DNA from: a virus
Lineage: Duplodnaviria; Heunggongvirae; Uroviricota; Caudoviricetes
DNA length: 11,394 bases
IMG/VR virus record: IMGVR_UViG_2531839129_000022
Direction: 5' to 3' (one strand)
Under the pieces are notes generated by a model that saw only the letters and a list, made by a program, of their open reading frames with translations, was not told the origin of the DNA and searched no databases. How positions within the stretch are numbered: the stretch's first letter is position 1; each line of letters starts with the position of its first letter. Both the position numbers and the translations under genes were made by a program. Positions 389-11,394 of this stretch are shown one piece after another.

Positions 389-638
389 CATGATGTTCTG
401 TCTCGTCTGCCAGCCGTGCGGCACGATTTGCGGCACGGATAGCGGAAAATACCTGCATCGTCTGTTCCTGACCGTGTAACAACCATTCAGCAGTGTGGCG
501 GGCCTGTTGCTCCGTCTGTAATTCACGGCGCAGCGTCTGGTTATCGTGGCGGGTGCTGTCCAGCCTGTGCCACAACACCCCGGACAGAACGGCGGCAAAC
601 ACGGCAGCCAGCAGTAAACTTTTACTGGCGAAGGTCAT
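252..638 (-). CDS. i-spanin (Rz-like inner-membrane spanin subunit)
   Basis: 128 aa with an N-terminal hydrophobic TM segment (LLLAAVFAAVLSGVLW) followed by a charged, helical periplasmic region (RRELQTEQQARHTAEW...). Its start overlaps the lys 3' end by 17 nt. A G-rich Shine-Dalgarno precedes the ATG. Confidence 0.6.
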   Translation of the reverse strand: MTFASKSLLLAAVFAAVLSGVLWHRLDSTRHDNQTLRRELQTEQQARHTAEWLLHGQEQTMQVFSAIRAANRAARLADETEHHDAKQKITTAITGDNCSTRPVPAVAADRLRELEKRTRAIGGAPARN

Positions 639-1137
639 CCGCCCCCCTGATATTCCAGATAGCCATTTCCACTTCGCGACGGTTCATCAGTCCTTTCCAT
701 TTATGGCCTGCGGCAAACACCCAGCGGGCCATCTGGTCACGCGCTCCGGCGTAATCACCGGCATTGAGTTTTTTCAGCAGCGTTGATTTACTGAATGCGG
801 TAACACCGGTGTTGAAAATAAACGTTGCCAGCGCCGTTTTCTGATATGGCGTCAGCGGCACCCTGACAAGACGATCGATTGCCGCATAAACCGGTTTTAA
901 ATCACTGTCGAGAAGAGCCATACACTCCGCATGGCTGTAACGGCGCATTTCGATATCCGGCCCGGTATGTCCCACACAGACCGTAAGCACACCGGCAATA
1001 TCGCGGTAAGGCATATAAGCGATATTTTCCAGATGGATCAGAGACTGACGGGTCATTTCCTGATAACCACCCACACCGCCACCGGCAATCGTTGCCGCCA
1101 GCAGTGCGGCTTTCAGTTTTTTTGGTATCCCCGCCAT
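622..1137 (-). CDS. lys: SAR endolysin Lys (T4-lysozyme-like muramidase, GH24-type E...D...T catalytic triad)
   Basis: Translation MAGIPKKLKAALLAATIAGGGVGGY... has a Gly/Ala-rich signal-anchor-release segment, then HLENIAYMPYRDIAGVLTVCVGHTG with lysozyme-like catalytic E/D/T spacing. It matches the Mu endolysin as I recall it. Tandem ATG ATG at 1140..1135; the second is better spaced from the SD. Confidence 0.88.
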   Translation of the reverse strand: MAGIPKKLKAALLAATIAGGGVGGYQEMTRQSLIHLENIAYMPYRDIAGVLTVCVGHTGPDIEMRRYSHAECMALLDSDLKPVYAAIDRLVRVPLTPYQKTALATFIFNTGVTAFSKSTLLKKLNAGDYAGARDQMARWVFAAGHKWKGLMNRREVEMAIWNIRGADDLRQ

Positions 1138-1140
1138 CAT

Positions 1141-1231: not shown

Positions 1232-1237
1232 TTATTT
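1211..1237 (-). promoter_or_regulatory. Perfect 12-bp inverted repeat AAATAACCGGCA-gga-TGCCGGTTATTT overlapping the C stop codon; candidate activator (C) binding site and/or middle-transcript hairpin
   Basis: Read directly from the sequence: arms 1211..1222 and 1226..1237 are exact reverse complements with a 3-nt spacer. Confidence 0.45.
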
Positions 1238-1654
1238 TGGGCTTTCAGGTGAGAACAGATCAGGCTGATGACGTCGTGTATGCAGCTTTCTCTGGCGGGC
1301 AATAATCTGGTAGATCTGCGGCTGGGACAGGCGATACTGGCGACGCAGTTCTTCCATGTTACGACCATTGAACTGGCAGTAAAGCAAATCGTCGCGTAAC
1401 GCGGTCAGGATCGTATCGCCGCAGGGGATGTAAAACTGCCGCCCGCCCAGAAAACAGGACAGGGCAACGGCCTGTTTACGGGCAAGCTCACGGGGATTGC
1501 TGACGTTCTGGCGTTTCAGTTCGTTTTCCAGAATATCAATCAGATCAACCACTGAACGGGGCCAGCGTGATTCCAGTTCCGGGGCCGGGATGTTATCAAT
1601 ATGCCCGATTAACTGGCGAATTGCCGGATCGTGTTCAAATAAATCATGCTGCAT
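1232..1654 (-). CDS. C: Late transcription activator C (Mor/C family)
   Basis: 140 aa MQHDLFEHDPAIRQLIGHID... The C-terminal block GGRQFYIPCG...NGRNMEELRRQYRLSQPQIYQIIAR is clearly paralogous to the Mor block GGGQVYIPRG...NGRNVSELTTRYGVTFNTVYKAIRR in the same window. A G-rich SD (CCGGGGGAAAAT) precedes the ATG. Confidence 0.9.
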   Translation of the reverse strand: MQHDLFEHDPAIRQLIGHIDNIPAPELESRWPRSVVDLIDILENELKRQNVSNPRELARKQAVALSCFLGGRQFYIPCGDTILTALRDDLLYCQFNGRNMEELRRQYRLSQPQIYQIIARQRKLHTRRHQPDLFSPESPK

Positions 1655-1669
1655 ATTTTCCCCCGGTTA

Positions 1670-1786
1670 ACAGACAAAAAGATACACCACGGCACTGATG
1701 GTTATCAGAACCACAAGGGCAATCACTTTTATCGCATTAATCAGCGTGGACGGCCCGAAACATTCATCACTGAATTTTCTGTACAT
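1670..1786 (-). CDS. Small hydrophobic ORF (39 aa, MYRKFSDECFGPSTLINAIKVIALVVLITISAVVYLFVC), possible single-pass membrane peptide in the middle operon
   Basis: Found by manual translation of the 217-bp gap between the upstream membrane ORF and C. It has an AAAGGGG SD-like element shortly upstream and a single hydrophobic stretch. It is below the ORF-track length cut-off, so support is weak. Confidence 0.25.
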
Positions 1787-1871
1787 GGTGCCCCTTTACC
1801 CGAACAGACGAGCGCGAAAACGAAAGGAGAGCCAGAACGTCAGCAATCCGGCCAGCGCCCAGATGACATAC

Positions 1872-2159
1872 TCAGGACCCGTTTTCAGTTGAGACGTTGC
1901 CATCACGGCTAATCCCAGCCCGGACAGCCCCCCCCAGCCAGGTCAGAGGCCAGACGAACCGGGCAAAATGTTCAGGCACCCGGCAGCTCATTATCAGCGC
2001 ATCCAGATAATCACCGGCAACACATAAAGCAACACTGAAAACCGAGGCACAGCAAAACATCAGCGCGCGCCAGCCACAAAACAGACTTATCCACAATAAC
2101 AGCGCCAGTAATACCACCGATAAAAAATCAGGCCACTGACGAGCAGAACGCTCAGACAT
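1872..2159 (-). CDS. Middle-operon small membrane protein (two predicted TM helices); start taken at MSERSARQ, which overlaps the upstream stop (ATGTCTGA)
   Basis: ORF track gives 1872..2210. The internal ATG at 2159 overlaps the TGA of the 2152..2370 ORF (translational-coupling arrangement). Hydrophobic segments: FLSVVLLALLLWISLFCGW and FCCASVFSVALCVAG. Confidence 0.45.
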   Translation of the reverse strand: MSERSARQWPDFLSVVLLALLLWISLFCGWRALMFCCASVFSVALCVAGDYLDALIMSCRVPEHFARFVWPLTWLGGAVRAGISRDGNVSTENGS

Positions 2160-2370
2160 AATGTTTCTCCCTGTAAAGCAGGCAATGATGAAGAATTTCC
2201 GGCATATCAACTGACTGCCAGCCTTTCATGTAATAACTGCCGTGGGTGCCATCATGACCGGTATAGTCGCGGGGCGCAGGACGTGGCCCACCGGCGACAC
2301 GGCGCAAAACCTCCTGACGCAGCCGCTCACGTCTGCCAAGATGAAAGGATGCATTCCAGCCTTTACCCAT
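2152..2370 (-). CDS. First ORF of the middle operon (72 aa, basic, function unknown)
   Basis: ATG at 2370 with GGGGAAAA about 6 nt upstream, located just downstream of the mor terminator/middle-promoter region. The product is Arg-rich with no recognisable domain. Confidence 0.4.
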   Translation of the reverse strand: MGKGWNASFHLGRRERLRQEVLRRVAGGPRPAPRDYTGHDGTHGSYYMKGWQSVDMPEILHHCLLYREKHYV

Positions 2371-2416
2371 GATGATTTTCCCCGGTACGGTTATTCATCA
2401 CAGGATATTGAGGACG
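2371..2416 (-). promoter_or_regulatory. Candidate middle promoter Pm core (Mor-dependent), between the post-mor hairpin and the first middle ORF
   Basis: Position is right for a Mor-activated promoter driving 2370 down to C. The - strand reads TCAATATCCTGTGATGAATAACCG with -10-like hexamers but no good -35, consistent with activator dependence. Exact boundaries are not determinable by eye. Confidence 0.35.
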
Positions 2417-2443
2417 TAAAAAAAGCCGGATTAACCGGCTTTA
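2417..2443 (-). terminator. Rho-independent-type terminator of the early transcript directly after mor (stem AGCCGG/CCGGCT, loop UUAAU, then U7 on the - strand); likely doubles as part of the Mor-binding dyad
   Basis: Read directly: + strand A7 (2418..2424), GCCGG, ATTAA, CCGGC, T. On the - strand transcript this is hairpin plus seven U. It begins 5 nt after the mor stop. Confidence 0.6.
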
Positions 2444-2447
2444 CTGT

Positions 2448-2837
2448 TTACAGAAGTGAGGGCTGGTACTGGCGGTATTTCAGCCGTCGCATCCGGCGAA
2501 TGGCCTTGTAAACCGTATTGAAAGTGACACCATAACGGGTGGTCAGTTCGCTGACGTTGCGACCGTTAAAATCATTCCAGATACGCAAATCCCGAATCAG
2601 CGAGTCCAGAACCTGACCGCGTGGAATGTAGACCTGGCCGCCGCCCAGATGCTTACAGATAGCCACAACAATCTCCAGTGAATGGGCAGGATCAACACCC
2701 AGCCGGGACAATTCCCCGCGCAGTAAATCGTTCAGCTCCGCCAGCAGTGCCGGAAAGCGTGACGTATCCTCTGCGGGATTGTCAAGATGTGCCAGGATGG
2801 TGTCATCCTGCAAATCACCAAATAAATCTTCCGTCAT
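2448..2837 (-). CDS. mor: Middle operon regulator Mor (Mor/C family transcription activator)
   Basis: 129 aa MTEDLFGDLQDDTILAHLDNPAEDTSRFPALLAELNDLL...; the C-terminal HTH block is paralogous to C. The start overlaps the gemA stop (ATGA). Confidence 0.9.
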   Translation of the reverse strand: MTEDLFGDLQDDTILAHLDNPAEDTSRFPALLAELNDLLRGELSRLGVDPAHSLEIVVAICKHLGGGQVYIPRGQVLDSLIRDLRIWNDFNGRNVSELTTRYGVTFNTVYKAIRRMRRLKYRQYQPSLL

Positions 2838-3415: not shown

Positions 3416-3832
3416 ATGAAAATTGATTATGACGAGATAGCCAGAATATTTGATGTTTTTCTGGAGGCCGACACCGCATTCATTCGACTGGAAGATGTCG
3501 GCTGGGATTGTTCTCAGCGGCACAGCGACAGCCATCAGAAGCTGGTTTTCCATCTTCTGTTGCTGGTTGAAAATGGTTTTATCAGCAACAGATATCTGGA
3601 AACAGGCACCGCAAAAAGCATTGGTCTCACCCCAACAAGCCTCGGATATTCATATTCAGGCACCAGTGTCAGACTTACACAAGATGGTCATGATTTTGCG
3701 AAAGCACTACATCAAAAACCCATTCTTGAGCGCATAAAACAGGACCTTGCCGACGCCCCGATGACGCTCGTAACAGACGTCGGCAAACAGTGGTTAACCT
3801 CGTTTCTTAAAAAGAAACTCGGGATTGAATAG
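3416..3832 (+). CDS. Hypothetical protein, 138 aa, encoded on the strand opposite to the whole early operon (candidate accessory gene)
   Basis: It is the only substantial ORF in the 408-bp gap between gemA and the upstream early ORF; manual translation of all three - frames there gives nothing longer than about 25 codons. AAGGAA SD 7 nt before the ATG. Candidate extended -10 (TGgATTAAT, 3354..3362) inside the gemA 5' region. The stretch looks more AT-rich than its flanks by eye. No recognisable domain. Confidence 0.45.
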   Translation: MKIDYDEIARIFDVFLEADTAFIRLEDVGWDCSQRHSDSHQKLVFHLLLLVENGFISNRYLETGTAKSIGLTPTSLGYSYSGTSVRLTQDGHDFAKALHQKPILERIKQDLADAPMTLVTDVGKQWLTSFLKKKLGIE

Positions 3833-4120
3833 TTCCCTGTTCATACGTTGCAGCGCATCAAGGGCGGCGACAGCCGCCACTTTATTGTTACCATCAGCAA
3901 TAGTGCGGAGATTTTCAATAATCCAGTGAGGACTCAGTGACTCAGCAATAATGCCAAACCGGTACGCCATGACTTCATCAATAGCTTTTTCATGAGACGA
4001 CTCATATACAAAACTCACAAAGTCATGCACTTCTTTTTTCGGCAAACCACCAGCAATCAGCAGGGCGGCAAGCTCTTCTGATTTTGAAAATACACCATTA
4101 TTCATATCACTCACCTTCAC
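3794..4120 (-). CDS. Early-region hypothetical protein (108 aa)
   Basis: Same strand as the early operon; its start overlaps the stop of the upstream ORF by 14 nt (coupled). No recognisable motif. Confidence 0.5.
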   Translation of the reverse strand: MKVSDMNNGVFSKSEELAALLIAGGLPKKEVHDFVSFVYESSHEKAIDEVMAYRFGIIAESLSPHWIIENLRTIADGNNKVAAVAALDALQRMNRELFNPEFLFKKRG

Positions 4121-4865
4121 AATTCATGCACGCCGTGTCATCGCCCATATCGCAGTGGTTGCATTTCTGCCCGCCACAATGAGGGCACTCTTTCAGATAT
4201 TCAGGGGATTCATTCCCGCAGGTCGGGCATTCCTGTTTCACCGTGGTAAATGTCCCCGGCCACGAATACGATGTTTCACCGACTGTCTTTTTCCCCGTTA
4301 TTTCTGAATCAGAACTAATACAGTGTTTTTCAACCCATGCCACACGTGCTGAATTAAGGTGGCATCTGGCTAATTTGCTTTCGTTTATGTAATGTTCGCT
4401 CTCCCGGTTAAATGGCAATATCGCATTCAGCCCTGCTGAGATAAAGTCCGCATGTAATTGTTCTAATGCGGCTTCACTGTCTGCACCGGTTGATTCAAAA
4501 TAATCGTAAGCATTGGCACATAATCCGGCAGCCCGGATAAATACATCATCGCCCGTCTCCATTGCCCCATTCTTTAACCATTGGTTGTAGGCTGTATAAA
4601 AACTATAAAGTTGCTTTCTGATACAGGTAGTGGCAGTTCCGCCATTAACTGACGCTGGCGTAACATAGCCAGCTCTGCATAAAGCAGAACGAAGTATATC
4701 CAGAACCTGCCAGGCATCTTCTCCTTCAATCACGCTACAGTTTTTGTACACCAGGACGTCCCGGCCACAACTTTTATCAATACCCCAGTCTTCAAATTTC
4801 ACAACCAGCCTCCTGCACCACACCCGGTGCTGATGAAAAATCAATGATGAGATAACGCAGTACAT
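4107..4865 (-). CDS. Early-region protein with C-terminal double zinc-ribbon (four CxxC: CPTC, CPHC, CNHC, CMNC); function unknown
   Basis: 252-aa ORF from ATG 4865. An alternative GTG start at 4802 is preceded by AGGAGG with a 6-nt spacer and would overlap the upstream stop by only 11 nt. The Cys-rich tail is unmistakable in the translation. Confidence 0.55.
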   Translation of the reverse strand: MYCVISSLIFHQHRVWCRRLVVKFEDWGIDKSCGRDVLVYKNCSVIEGEDAWQVLDILRSALCRAGYVTPASVNGGTATTCIRKQLYSFYTAYNQWLKNGAMETGDDVFIRAAGLCANAYDYFESTGADSEAALEQLHADFISAGLNAILPFNRESEHYINESKLARCHLNSARVAWVEKHCISSDSEITGKKTVGETSYSWPGTFTTVKQECPTCGNESPEYLKECPHCGGQKCNHCDMGDDTACMNCEGE

Positions 4866-5429: not shown

Positions 5430-5954
5430 TTAAATACCGGCTTCCTGTTCAAACGGAATAATGGAAAAATCTTCAATGCCTGATTTAACTGTAATTCCGG
5501 CAACACCTGCGACCGCTTTCGGTTCCAGCAAAATCGCTTCCTTGTTGATTTCCTGCTTCGTGCGAATAAAGCGTTGCAGGCCAAGACGCTCCAGCGTTTC
5601 CATCACTGCATCCATACCACGAATACTTACTGATGGTGGACGGACCCGCCACGATACATCACCGGTGACAAGATTCGCCGTCTTCACTTTGCCGCCGTTC
5701 GTCAGTTCGTCGCGGTTCGCTTCACACCATCCCTGAACGCCTTTTGAAAGGGTTTCAATATCGGTTTTAATCGGTGTAATCCGGGCCGCAAATTTCTCCG
5801 TAATTTCCGCGATGGCATCATTCATTTCCGTTTCCAGACGTGATGCTTCGCGCTGTAAATCCCCGATGCGTTTAATATCGGTAATCACCGCATCGCGGTT
5901 TTGTGGCATATAAGCCGCTGCGGCACTCTTGATGCGTTTTGCTGGTTTAGCCAT
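5430..5954 (-). CDS. gam: Gam, host-nuclease (RecBCD) inhibitor, Ku-like DNA-end-binding protein
   Basis: 174 aa MAKPAKRIKSAAAAYMPQNRDAVITDIKRIGDLQREASRLETEMNDAIAEI... matches Mu Gam as I recall it, in the expected position between B and gemA. Confidence 0.9.
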   Translation of the reverse strand: MAKPAKRIKSAAAAYMPQNRDAVITDIKRIGDLQREASRLETEMNDAIAEITEKFAARITPIKTDIETLSKGVQGWCEANRDELTNGGKVKTANLVTGDVSWRVRPPSVSIRGMDAVMETLERLGLQRFIRTKQEINKEAILLEPKAVAGVAGITVKSGIEDFSIIPFEQEAGI

Positions 5955-7436: not shown

Positions 7437-8375
7437 TTAATTACGCAGCAGCGTTGAAATATCAACGTCCAGGTCTAATTCACGGAAAGCCTGACGCAGA
7501 TAATCTTCGTTAACACGCTCACCTTTACCGTGAGCCGTCATGGCGGCAAGGCGAAGTGAATGATTCAGAATGCGAAGCGCACCTGGTTTCTGCGCAATCT
7601 GCTGTAATAACTCCAGTTCATTTTCGCCGTTAATCTGCCAGGCATCCGCAATAGCTTTTACATCGGCTTTTTTTGTTTTATTAATTGCAGTACGCTTTGC
7701 AATACGGGAAAACAGACGGGCAAATTCAACCGTTCTGTTACCCCCCGTCATATTTGAATAAACCCGGTGATTTCCCATCAGTACAAGGCCAATACGGGTT
7801 GATTCCTGTAACAGGCGGAGTTCTTCCAGAACTTCGGCACCAAGATGATCAGCTTCGTCGATGATAACCAGCCCCTGTGTACCTTCAAGGCGACGTCGCA
7901 GGGCACGGGAGAGTGGCCCTTTACGGCGTGGTGCGTCATTCATTCCCAGCTCAAACGCCAGTTCAGTAAGACATTCCAAAACGCTAGCACAGGATGGCGT
8001 AATGGTGATCATCCAGACATTGTTATTGGTGCGGCGATATTCACGGGCCGCTTCGGTTTTGCCCACACCAGGATTGCCACATACAACAGCAATACTTTCA
8101 GTCAGGCTGGCAAAACGCATACTTGTCCAGATTTGTTTTACCGTCTGCGTTTCCACAAAGCGGGGCGGTTCAGGTAGTTCTGCAACTGCATGATATTTTT
8201 CCAGCCAGCGTTGCAGCATTTGTGAAACACGCTCGTTATCCCCGTTGTACTTATCATTGATAAAACTACTGATAGTTCCGGTAGAAAGTCCGCTCTCAAG
8301 AGCAATTTGTTTAAAGGTGGTTTCTTCATTTTCTACAAGCGTGCGCAGTCCTGCGCGAATATCGGAAATATTCAT
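7437..8375 (-). CDS. B: MuB transposition target-DNA activator (AAA+ ATPase)
   Basis: 312 aa. Walker A GNPGVGKT and Walker B LVIIDEADHL are present, with an N-terminal HTH-like region. Matches Mu B as recalled. Confidence 0.93.
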   Translation of the reverse strand: MNISDIRAGLRTLVENEETTFKQIALESGLSTGTISSFINDKYNGDNERVSQMLQRWLEKYHAVAELPEPPRFVETQTVKQIWTSMRFASLTESIAVVCGNPGVGKTEAAREYRRTNNNVWMITITPSCASVLECLTELAFELGMNDAPRRKGPLSRALRRRLEGTQGLVIIDEADHLGAEVLEELRLLQESTRIGLVLMGNHRVYSNMTGGNRTVEFARLFSRIAKRTAINKTKKADVKAIADAWQINGENELELLQQIAQKPGALRILNHSLRLAAMTAHGKGERVNEDYLRQAFRELDLDVDISTLLRN

Positions 8376-8413: not shown

Positions 8414-10405
8414 TTAAATGACTTTTTTACGTCTGTTCTGTTCCAGAATATCCAGTGAATGATTCAGATATTCATCACGATCAGTTTCATATTCATCATC
8501 GGCTTCCTGGTATTTCACCTGCACCGTGTTACCGGAAGGCCGGAAAATACCAACAACCCTTGATTCTGGTGCTGCTGGTTCGGCTATCTGCGGCAGCAGT
8601 TCAGCAACTTCCAGCGCGTCCATTTGTTTCTGCGCCTTAATGGCTGCTTTAGTTGCAGATTTCAGTTGTTTCTGGCGGCGGCGATATTCACGGCCTGCCG
8701 CTGCATCATTAAACGCAACAGGTGCCAGACATTCCGCTTCACAGATAAACCGACCGTCCAGGGTGTAACAATAAACCGTGCTGTGTAGCTGCTGCGGATC
8801 AAACCTGACCACAACTTTTTTCACGCCGGCATTCATTAATGCCATGTTGTAATAAACGTTTTTCGCGCCTTTAAGGGAGCCGCCAACTTTAAGCGTAAAC
8901 TCGCCTTTGCGTGAAACGTTCACCGCCTCGGCAGGCAGTAACAGCATCCGTTTTTGTTCTTCGGTTGGCTTACGCACAATCGTTCTGGCGTATTCACGCT
9001 CGAAAACATCATCAAACGAGAGTTTGCCCCCGCACATTTCTGTTTCACGGCCTGTTCTGGCATTGAACATCGCCACACCTTCGGCAAGGGTTTTCAGAAA
9101 CAGCTCTGCATCAACAGCGCGGTCGCCATAGTTATCAGGTTTTGCCTGAGGATTTGGCCCCGTATATGCGCCAGCCAGTGCCGGATGCTTATCAACGTAT
9201 TCCTCAAGCCCACCAACACCGAAAGCACGTTCAACAGGTTTTGCCTGGCCCCAGCCTTTACCAGCAACAACGCTTGTCCAGTGCATTTTCGCACCCATCA
9301 GTAAAAACAGTCCCTTTGGATCGTCTTCTTTCACCTTAAAGCGGTAGCGATTGGGCGCGCCTCCCGTCAGCCATTTATTCGCTGCACCACGGGTGTTATC
9401 AATGGTGATGTGAAAATCCTCCGGGATACCGTAGCGAGTCACAACATCCATGAACGAGAGGCGAATTGAATCAATGTTCTCGCTCACATCGCAGCGCCAG
9501 CCCAGAATTTTTCGGGTTTTCACATCCTGCCAGAACCATGTTTTCGGGCGGATCACATCACCGTTAAACCAGCGTACAAAGACGTTATGCAGATAACCGT
9601 CGCCGTTGATCCACTGCATGGCATCCAGGTGTTCCACAGTTCGCTGTTGTGCCGGTATCAGATGCATCAGTGCATGTTCACCTTCACGGCAGGCAACAAC
9701 CATTGCCTCGTCCAGTTGCTGAATCCGGCGAAAGGCCGTGGCACGGGAGGGAATACTCCAGCCATGCTCGCGGGCTGCCAGTTCCAGACGCTCATAACAT
9801 TTGCGGAAGGCGGGTTTTTCCGGTCGCAGATAATCTGCGATCAGAAACTGCCAGGCATCCTCGTCAAATTCACTTTTGTGAACGTTGCGACGGGATGCAC
9901 CACGTCCATCAACAAGCGCAGCCGCCCAGTCAGGCTTCGCAAACTTCTGTACCTGGTAATACTTGTCCCGCAAAGTGGATGCGCTGACCTGGTAATGCCC
10001 TGCAACGGTCGCAAAAGCCGTTTTTGTTGAAATCCCCTGGTTCAGCATTTCGTCTGCAGCCTGAACCGCAGGCAACCATTTTTCAGCAAGTCTGCGCTGG
10101 GAATCGCTGGCGTTATCCCATTTGCTCCACAGTGCCTCACGATCATAATCATGGGCTTCCAGCGTGGGGCGGGCGATTTCAAAATACCCCAGGCTTGTTT
10201 CAATCTCTCCTTGTCTCAGCAATAACGCCGCTTTCGCTTCAACAGGTAAAGAGTTCGCATTGTATTCAATTGCTTTACCACCTTTGACACCTGCTCTAGT
10301 GCGGTTTTGCCATCCTTGCTTTTTAGCAACATAAATCACACCAGCCGATGTTTTCGGCAAACCAGGAAGATTCGCACACTCTTTCGGTGATACCCAAAGT
10401 TCCAT
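8414..10405 (-). CDS. A: MuA DDE transposase
   Basis: 663 aa from [32 protein letters not shown]... The ORF track starts three codons earlier at a GTG, but the ATG at 10405 has AGGTGA 5 nt upstream. The N-terminal domain is visibly homologous to the c repressor N-terminus in this window. Confidence 0.95.
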
Positions 10406-10406
10406 G

Positions 10407-10634
10407 TTATTCACCTGCTTGATATCGGCTAGGCCAGATTACTTCCGGTTTAGTTTCTAAGGCGTTAGCAATAATCTGCTCACCCTTTGGCCAGTGTCGT
10501 TCTAGCGCATTAGCTAATGTAGTTGGCGCATAACCAAACTGCCGGGAAAGAGCTGATAAAGAGAGCTTTCTTTTCTTAAGTCCCGCAATCACATCCGCAC
10601 GATGCCAATCACGGGCCTTTTCGTTGGAACACAT
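10407..10634 (-). CDS. ner: Ner, negative regulator of early transcription (small DNA-binding protein)
   Basis: 75 aa [48 protein letters not shown]... with an AGGAGG SD 8 nt upstream. The stop is 1 nt before the A start codon. Confidence 0.9.
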
Positions 10635-10803
10635 TTAAAAACCCTCCTAAGTTTTGTAATCTATAAAGTTAGCAATTTAACTAAGTGTAAAAACTTAGCT
10701 AGCTTGCTAAAAAGATAATTACTGAAAAGCTTTTTGTAAAGCTGCTTTTTGGTAAATTCCTTTGATTACTGATTAATGCATTGATAAATAAGGGGTTTAA
10801 ATT
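10635..10803. promoter_or_regulatory. Divergent control region between ner and c: repressor operators (O1-O3), early promoter Pe (- strand), repressor promoter Pc (+ strand); in Mu this region also acts as the transpositional enhancer
   Basis: AT-rich 169-bp gap between divergent c and ner. Repeated GCTTTT-n-GTAA-type motifs (GCTTTTTGTAAA 10728..10739, GCTTTTTGGTAAA 10744..10756, inverted TTACTGAAAAGC 10719..10730). Palindrome CTAAGT-gtaaaa-ACTTAG at 10681..10698. IHF-consensus match TATCAATGCATTA on the - strand at 10774..10786. Confidence 0.7.
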
Positions 10804-11394
10804 TTGAAAAGTAACTTTATAGAAAAGGGTGATACTGAAAAGTCAATTTGGTGTTCGCCGCAAGAAATTATGGCTGCTGATGGTATGCCTGGATCTGTTG
10901 CTGGTGTTCACTATCGAGCAAATGTTCAAGGCTGGACGAAGCGGAAAAAGGAAGGTGTCAAGGGGGGGAAAGCTGTTGAATACGATGTGATGTCGATGCC
11001 CACCAAAGAACGAGAGCAAGTTATTGCGCACTTGGGGTTATCCACACCGGATACTGGTGCTCAAGCCAATGAGAAACAGGATTCTTCGGAACTGATAAAC
11101 AAATTAACCACAACCTTAATCAATATGATTGAAGAGCTGGAACCAGATGAAGCACGCAAGGCACTGAAACTTTTAAGTAAAGGGGGGTTGTTGGCGTTAA
11201 TGCCTCTTGTATTTAATGAACAGAAACTTTACAGCTTTATAGGATTTTCACAGCAAAGTATTCAGACGTTGATGATGCTAGATGCATTACCTGAAGAAAA
11301 ACGCAAAGAGATTTTGTCAAAGTATGGGATTCATGAACAGGAAAGTGTTGTAGTACCTTCACAGGAACCACAGGAGGTAAAAAAAGCCGTATAA
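10804..11394 (+). CDS. c: Mu-type lysogenic repressor c (Repc), TTG start
   Basis: 196 aa (M)KSNFIEKGDTEKSIWCSPQEIMAADGMPGSVAGVHYRANVQGW... The N-terminal DNA-binding domain is homologous to the MuA N-terminus. The initiation codon is TTG, with AAGGGG about 9 nt upstream. The stop is the last codon of the window. Confidence 0.9.
   Translation: MKSNFIEKGDTEKSIWCSPQEIMAADGMPGSVAGVHYRANVQGWTKRKKEGVKGGKAVEYDVMSMPTKEREQVIAHLGLSTPDTGAQANEKQDSSELINKLTTTLINMIEELEPDEARKALKLLSKGGLLALMPLVFNEQKLYSFIGFSQQSIQTLMMLDALPEEKRKEILSKYGIHEQESVVVPSQEPQEVKKAV

Follow-up and report, generated by a model that had tools for sequence, protein, structure and literature searches.

Gene 19 of phage Mu (AAF01096.1; Mu_19) belongs to the middle operon activated by Mor, in which it is flanked by gene 18 and gene 20. 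In the updated Mu annotation (AF083977) the Mor-activated middle promoter immediately precedes gene 18 and a terminator immediately follows C. Gene 19 is 363 nt long and specifies a 120-aa product in Mu, D108 and Mu_3F6 as well as in prophages of E. coli strains such as W, and the Mu annotation describes the product as having four transmembrane domains in an N-in C-in arrangement. Samanta et al. (2021) proposed that gp19 and gp20 form a holin/antiholin pair. The findings of Chamblee et al. run contrary to this proposal: expression of 19, 20 or 19+20 did not cause DNP-triggered, holin-like lethality, gene inactivation had no significant effect on lysis, and gene 19 was reported to be dispensable (PMC9239132).

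The locus described here also shares features with the contingency loci of Neisseria, Haemophilus and Campylobacter, in which a poly-G tract lies within the ORF of a membrane protein and a change of ±1 toggles synthesis of the full-length product. The likeness extends to independent, recurrent changes in tract length. Frameshift decay of resident prophages is a further point of comparison, as in both cases a single-base indel disrupts a gene of a Mu-like prophage.

The stretch of DNA analyzed here (the window, 11,394 nucleotides) is the left end of a reverse-oriented Mu-like prophage. Across 87% of its length it shares 97.5% identity with Mu, and ner lies between the c repressor and A in the gene order (Table 1). 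A first-pass annotation of the window had drawn attention to an eight-base C/G run inside a membrane-protein ORF, and placed this run in the 1.2-kb Mor-dependent middle transcript that ends with C; the placement agrees with the aligned Mu annotation (AF083977). The ORF occupies the position of gene 19, between gene 18 and gene 20, with mor and Pm upstream and C downstream. Its residues 1–76 are ~97% identical to those of Mu gene 19. In contrast to Mu, the window has Gly77 (GGG) instead of Ser77 (AGT) together with an extra G, and as a result specifies a 95-aa product that is devoid of TM3b and TM4.

Table 1. Features of the window and their coordinates (nucleotides of the window)
Feature	Coordinates	Strand	Remarks
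c repressor	10804..11394	+	
A	8414..10414	-	
B	7437..8375	-	
gam	5430..5954	-	
mor	2448..2837	-	129 aa; middle-operon activator
Pm, Mor-activated middle promoter region	2385..2455	-	carried over from Mu AF083977 (promoter 9163-9233)
Early-transcript terminator hairpin	~2422..2442	-	Mu AF083977 terminator 9179-9200; terminator-like hairpin found at 2442..2422
Gene 18	2152..2370	-	72 aa; Phage_Mu_gp18; 3' end overlaps gene 19 start by 8 nt
Gene 19 ORF, frameshifted	1872..2159	-	95 aa; ATG at 2159, TGA 1872..1874; product = P0007
G8 homopolymer	1928..1935	-	GGG GGG codons 76-77 plus one extra G; +1 frameshift site
Out-of-frame gene 19 3' remnant	1796..1927	-	native codons 78-120 plus TAA 1796..1798
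Gene 20	1667..1786	-	39 aa; single-TM; phrog_19823; RBS overlaps gene 19 end in native arrangement
C	1232..1654	-	140 aa; Mor-family late activator; last gene of middle operon
lys	622..1140	-	

The eight-base run is present as the first-pass annotation claimed. C8 on the + strand (CCCCCCCC) corresponds to G8 on the coding strand, and the run encodes the Gly-Gly within the peptide segment PLTWLGGAVRAG. No other homopolymer in the window reaches eight bases, which makes this run the longest. When the window was subjected to mononucleotide shuffling, a run of at least eight of any base occurred in 41% of the shuffles and a G/C run of at least eight in 22%. By composition alone G8 is unremarkable, and its significance comes from comparison with relatives rather than from statistics. 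The second-longest G/C homopolymer of the window is a G7 run at 10962..10968 (+), inside the c-repressor ORF.

The 95-aa product joins residues 1–77 of the native protein to a hydrophilic tail of 18 out-of-frame residues, AVRAGISRDGNVSTENGS; in the program-made list of ORFs the same frame starts at an upstream TTG at 2210. The remnant downstream of the tract specifies the latter half of TM3 together with the whole of TM4 (LSGLGLAVMATSQLKTGPEYVIWALAGLLTFWLSFRFRARLFG). Removal of one G restored an ORF of 120 aa, with its TAA 9 nt before the gene 20 ATG and over the gene 20 RBS. The predicted products are 120 aa for G7, and 82, 95 and 83 aa for G6, G8 and G9, respectively. The G7-corrected product aligned with the phrog_4975 profile over residues 1–120 of 120 (E=7.3e-73), while the match of the protein as encoded was limited to residues 1–77. 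It was also identical to P0021, a protein found on 79 contigs, and 96% identical to the cluster representative P0001. All of the full-length matches to window positions 1650..2450 were 800 nt long, compared to 801 nt in the window.

Hydropathy analysis of the 120-aa form indicated hydrophobic segments at residues ~8–59 (two helices), 72–89 and 96–112; like Mu gp19, the corrected product thus has 120 aa, the full PHROG span and four hydrophobic segments. By the same analysis the 95-aa form retains only the first hydrophobic block (~8–59), segments 72–89 and 96–112 being gone, and the mean Kyte–Doolittle (KD) value of the tail falls from +0.75 in the native frame to -0.59 in the G8 frame. Downstream of the tract, comparison with the 84%-identical homolog P0002 (locus L047) gave synonymous/non-synonymous ratios of 4/6 in the 120-aa frame, and 1/9 and 3/7 in the other two, each drawn from few sites; the 120-aa frame was weakly favoured. 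Pfam and PADLOC searches returned no family for gp19, gp18 or gp20, and the PHROGs matches of all three were to entries of ‘unknown function’ only.

We conclude from these comparisons that the window ORF is, as judged at the sequence level, a +1-frameshifted and C-terminally truncated allele of Mu gene 19 (E19/Mup19, PHROG 4975). It has the gene order of this family and lacks the intact ORF with four transmembrane domains, N-in and C-in. The first-pass annotation had treated the 95-aa ORF as the gene and G8 as its normal state, a view that does not hold, as the window already contains the disrupted allele. Its proposal to translate the variants one base longer and shorter was fruitful: the -1 variant gave the longer, conserved 120-aa product, covering 120 of the 120 positions of PHROG 4975. 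The four-pass N-in/C-in topology could not form without TM3b and TM4, and the truncated product is likely to be non-functional.

Alignment of the tract region placed the relatives' sequence TGGCTGGGGAGTCTGTCC (TGG CTG GGG AGT CTG TCC, encoding W L G S L S) opposite TGGCTGGGGGGGGCTGTCC in the window. Alleles at codons 76–77 were collected by a variable-gap pattern scan supplemented with targeted look-ups. The resulting numbers of loci, which are biased by what was fetched, were 18 for GGGGAGT (Ser77; all phage records, e.g. Mu and D108, are among these), 12 for GGGGGGG (Gly77, G7, in frame), 7 for GGGGGGGG (G8, +1), 3 for GGGGGGGT (G7T, +1), 2 for GGGGGGT (Gly77, G6T, in frame), and 1 each for GGGGTGT (Cys77) and GGGGGG (G6). 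Codon 77 is therefore polymorphic among otherwise near-identical genes, being AGT (Ser), GGT or GGG (Gly), or TGT (Cys); all of these are small residues in the middle of the predicted TM3.

Complete E. coli genomes served as an unbiased subset of the relatives. In these, 25 of 25 copies, from 20 genomes, spanned 105 nt with 3–4 differences per 106 aligned positions relative to the window. These copies fit the in-frame AGT type, and none is of the G7 or G8 type. A pattern scan for the tract region in a contig collection holding one genome per species gave no match, the E. coli representative evidently being one without the gene. The homopolymer is therefore a derived feature of a minority lineage and not a conserved element of Mu-like phages.

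Among carriers of the tract the distribution was strongly skewed. P0021 occurred in 160 index blocks and P0026 in 103, both being in-frame Gly77 products (part of the P0026 entries are G6T), while each of the G8 products was found on 2–4 contigs. G9 and G10 products were absent among ~15 billion proteins. Exact look-ups of the ±1 products at the G4 run also found none on the one background used, the D108-type AGT allele. The usual state of the tract is therefore a stable, in-frame G7 in the great majority of carriers; these include L013, L016, L019 and L023–25.

The in-frame G7 allele encoding P0021 (e.g. IMG/VR UViG_2534681703_000016 and GCA_045080665.1) has a local haplotype identical to that of the window except for the tract, in which it has seven G residues rather than eight, with the frame intact and a product of 120 aa. 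Over the 750 nt from gene 18 to gene 20, the window haplotype was the same as that of the G7 loci L013, L016, L023 and L024 save for the extra G, and this G remained the only difference from the same four loci over ~2.4 kb (window-RC 8758 to 11131). A further G7 locus, L019, aligned with the window over 1398 nt with 0 mismatches and 1 gap. G8 was also found on a second haplotype, in E. coli O13:H15 (GCA_036436655.1, and the Logan assembly of SRR25183545; product P0008), which over 750 nt was identical to its G7 partners L031, L033, L034 and L037. A third G8 haplotype came from a metagenome (ENA ERZ15610048, and Logan ERR10692556; product P0035) and was identical over 750 nt to the G7 partner L035. 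As each of the three G8 haplotypes has an otherwise identical G7 partner, at least three independent G7 to G8 expansions have taken place, indicating that the tract is a real indel hotspot. The earlier suggestion that the tract is slippage-prone is thereby borne out: its length is not invariant among relatives, which vary between G7, G8, G7T and G6 calls, and the expansion to G8 recurred on at least three haplotypes. Literature searches did not find a description of this gene 19 hotspot, and a phage Tn-seq preprint on bioRxiv that they returned does not cover Mu genes 19 or 20.

Replication slippage is the standard mechanism for homopolymer indels. The G8 allele is probably an ordinary slippage frameshift in a dispensable accessory prophage gene, at a mild hotspot that is neither a conserved nor a programmed switch. 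In the history that we propose, codon 77 would have changed from AGT (Ser) to GGT and then to GGG (Gly), so that GGG at codon 77, GGG at codon 76 and the last base of the preceding CTG made seven consecutive G residues. Strand slippage during DNA replication would then have added the eighth. Ribosomes would be out of frame after Gly77, and the 120-aa four-helix protein would be replaced by one of 95 aa ending in the 18-residue hydrophilic tail. Termination would occur 85 nt before the gene 20 ATG compared to 9 nt in the native arrangement, and translational coupling to gene 20 could be weakened as a consequence. The G8 allele would persist because gene 19 is dispensable.

We considered whether the eighth G could be a sequencing or assembly artefact, in which case the true allele would be G7 and the additional base would stem from consensus calling in poly-G, perhaps made worse by the collapse of near-identical prophages. 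At 100% identity (8159/8159), the window matches contig APYN01000075.1, part of assembly GCA_000357305.2 from the E. coli P0299917 series. These are ETEC colonies from one patient in Dhaka, 9 of the 10 isolates being closely related (PMC4462620). Calls at the tract differed among the sibling assemblies: G8 in three, G7T in one (on two contigs) and G6 in one, and in another a contig ends at the tract. Two partial proteins, P0009 and P0014, stop precisely at ...WLGG, so that contigs break at the tract. In P0299917.6 the region is represented by two contigs, and the G6 and G7T products were found in NCBI assemblies only and not in Logan. The site is also one at which assembly runs into trouble. 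The disagreement between siblings could reflect real instability or technical trouble, and its interpretation is confounded by multiple prophage copies.

The evidence for G8 itself argues against this explanation. The P0299917 genomes were sequenced on the Illumina HiSeq2000, which is not a platform prone to homopolymer errors, at >200x and were assembled with Celera Assembler (PMC4462620). The exact 95-aa product (P0007) was present in three P0299917 protein records and on four contigs, and G8 appeared in three separate isolate assemblies as well as in a Logan re-assembly of SRR446943 that is independent of the depositors' Celera assembly. The G8 sibling contigs had no other homopolymer difference among them. 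In addition, the same +1 change was seen in the two unrelated datasets described above, each represented by two assemblies. An artefact at the eighth G is therefore unlikely, and the G8 of the P0299917 clone is most likely genuine and inherited. The possibility of an assembly-error hotspot, which the first-pass annotation had raised on equal terms, stands insofar as some contigs terminate precisely at ...WLGG and the G6 of one sibling is dubious; it fails for G8, which is no one-off error, being reproduced in several Illumina assemblies and in the Logan re-assembly.

The remaining sibling calls were considered individually. Contig APYM01000369.1, the source of the G6 call, has three further 1-nt indels, two of which are at sites where the siblings differ by substitution. 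These indels resemble the consensus of a collapsed repeat, and in view of the two that coincide with sites polymorphic between copies we discounted this G6 as evidence of -1 or -2 slippage. Both contigs of P0299917.6 carry G7T, on the window haplotype with the last G replaced by T. The simpler explanation for this allele is a G to T change in a G8 tract or an error in base calling. Its origin by +1 slippage from a G6T parent was rejected, as G7T is on the window haplotype while the G6T alleles (L030 and L032) are on others. Substitutions in the P0299917 siblings L020, L021, L022, L026, L027 and L038 fell at a recurring set of sites (window-RC 8599, 8674, 8758, 8884, 8890, 10789 and 11131), at two of which APYM01000369.1 has 1-nt deletions. 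The strain probably carries at least two near-identical Mu-like prophages, the draft contigs being in part a mosaic consensus.

A second alternative is that the tract is a phase-variable contingency locus, with frequent, reversible switching between ON (G7) and OFF (G6 or G8) states such that gp19 expression varies within populations. Genes for membrane proteins are typical targets of such switching, and the tract lies in the coding sequence of one. Its length does toggle the product, which is full-length (120 aa) for G7 and truncated for G6, G8 and G9. ON and OFF alleles were found on the same haplotype three times, and closely related isolates of one patient differed in their tract calls. 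Tracts at known contingency loci vary broadly in length and are mostly longer, and mismatch repair is active in E. coli. Unlike such loci, the tract described here is short (7–8), is absent from most members of the family, which have GGGGAGT instead, and is overwhelmingly in frame where it occurs. G7 dominates among carriers and products of G9 and G10 were absent, so that the family shows neither a conserved tract nor a broad distribution of lengths. The host is one with mismatch repair, and gene 19 has no known phenotype on which selection could act. Moreover, the tract calls in the P0299917 clone were all out of frame (OFF), with none ON. For these reasons we consider a phase-variable locus to be very unlikely, and conclude that the tract resembles a contingency locus in form only and behaves like any other homopolymer frameshift hotspot.

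We would likewise give very little chance to the idea that the G7 run created by Ser77Gly is a true, reversible ON/OFF switch of gp19 in one sublineage of Mu-like phages. If this were so, a phage gene would be phase-variable through a homopolymer in an E. coli host proficient in mismatch repair, and the switch would have left its traces in the three independent G8 alleles and in the tract calls that disagree between colonies of one patient.

In E. coli, transcriptional slippage has been described chiefly at long runs of A or T. Production of full-length gp19 from G8, whether through a +1 shift of ribosomes on GGG-GGG-G or slippage of RNA polymerase on C8, as a programmed means of setting a product ratio, is extremely improbable. 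The +1 frame would allow perfect re-pairing of tRNA-Gly, and the frame downstream is intact and open, but in homologs one unbroken ORF specifies all 120 aa, so that these neither conserve a shift site nor need a shift. G8 is a rare allele of recent origin from G7, and the codon after the run is GCU rather than a slow or stop codon, with no conserved stimulator identified.

The distribution of gene 19 bears on the persistence of slippage-derived G8 alleles. The order 18-20-C without gene 19 was found in SfMu, in a number of Mu-like phages of Yersinia and E. coli and in ~20 E. coli prophages from complete genomes. As gene 19 is dispensable, persistence of a frameshifted allele is unsurprising, and the truncated allele may well be neutral. 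Two gene 19 homologs from E. coli and Salmonella (P0011 and P0016) are 73 aa long and end in ...FVWPLT. This end implies a stop at W74 (W74*), two codons before the tract, which would be a separate knock-out of gene 19; P0016 is on a contig of 1366 nt and may instead be cut short by the contig end. Absence, nonsense mutation and frameshifting of the gene in Mu-like prophages together provide evidence from natural variation that gp19 is dispensable, in agreement with the published genetics.

The main consequence of this analysis is a correction to annotation: the 95-aa “membrane-protein ORF” becomes a frameshifted allele of Mu gene 19, the native product of which has 120 aa. It also illustrates how two point substitutions within one codon (AGT→GGT→GGG) can create an indel hotspot, at which the gene was knocked out at least three separate times. 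This is a new instance of a well-known event, and it opens no new mechanism or long-standing question. In Mu-like prophages from complete genomes of E. coli RM8082 (L006, 1913..) and FDAARGOS_1058 (L007, 1913..), the endolysin is annotated as ‘lysozyme, frameshifted’. Unlike this lysozyme decay, the lesion in the window is in a nonessential gene of the middle operon, such that the prophage may be fully viable, and it lies at a recurrent hotspot.

Several other features of the prophage were noted. A 138-aa ORF at 3416..3832 (+) is oriented opposite to the whole early operon and occupies a variable slot just upstream of gemA. It matched phrog_585 (unknown function) and had no Pfam or PADLOC match. 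In the Mu-like prophages L025, L032, L035 and L036 the same slot is filled by another gene in reverse orientation (88 or 79 aa). The slot could be a site for moron-type cargo. A 252-aa ORF of the early region at 4107..4865 (-) corresponds to phrog_6418, of unknown function. Its C-terminus is Cys-rich (CPTCG...CPHCGG...CNHC...CMNC), and its similarity to the DnaJ CXXCXGXG-type zinc finger was sub-threshold (17.3 bits against a cut-off of 32.7). Lastly, a 186-aa gene lies upstream of the 18-like gene in E. coli elppa5 (L009, 49..609), where its annotation assigns it to glycoside hydrolase family 108, and in Yersinia phage vB_YpM_5 (L010, 686..1246). The presence of this gene in some Mu-like elements shows that the leader region of the middle operon is another variable cargo site.
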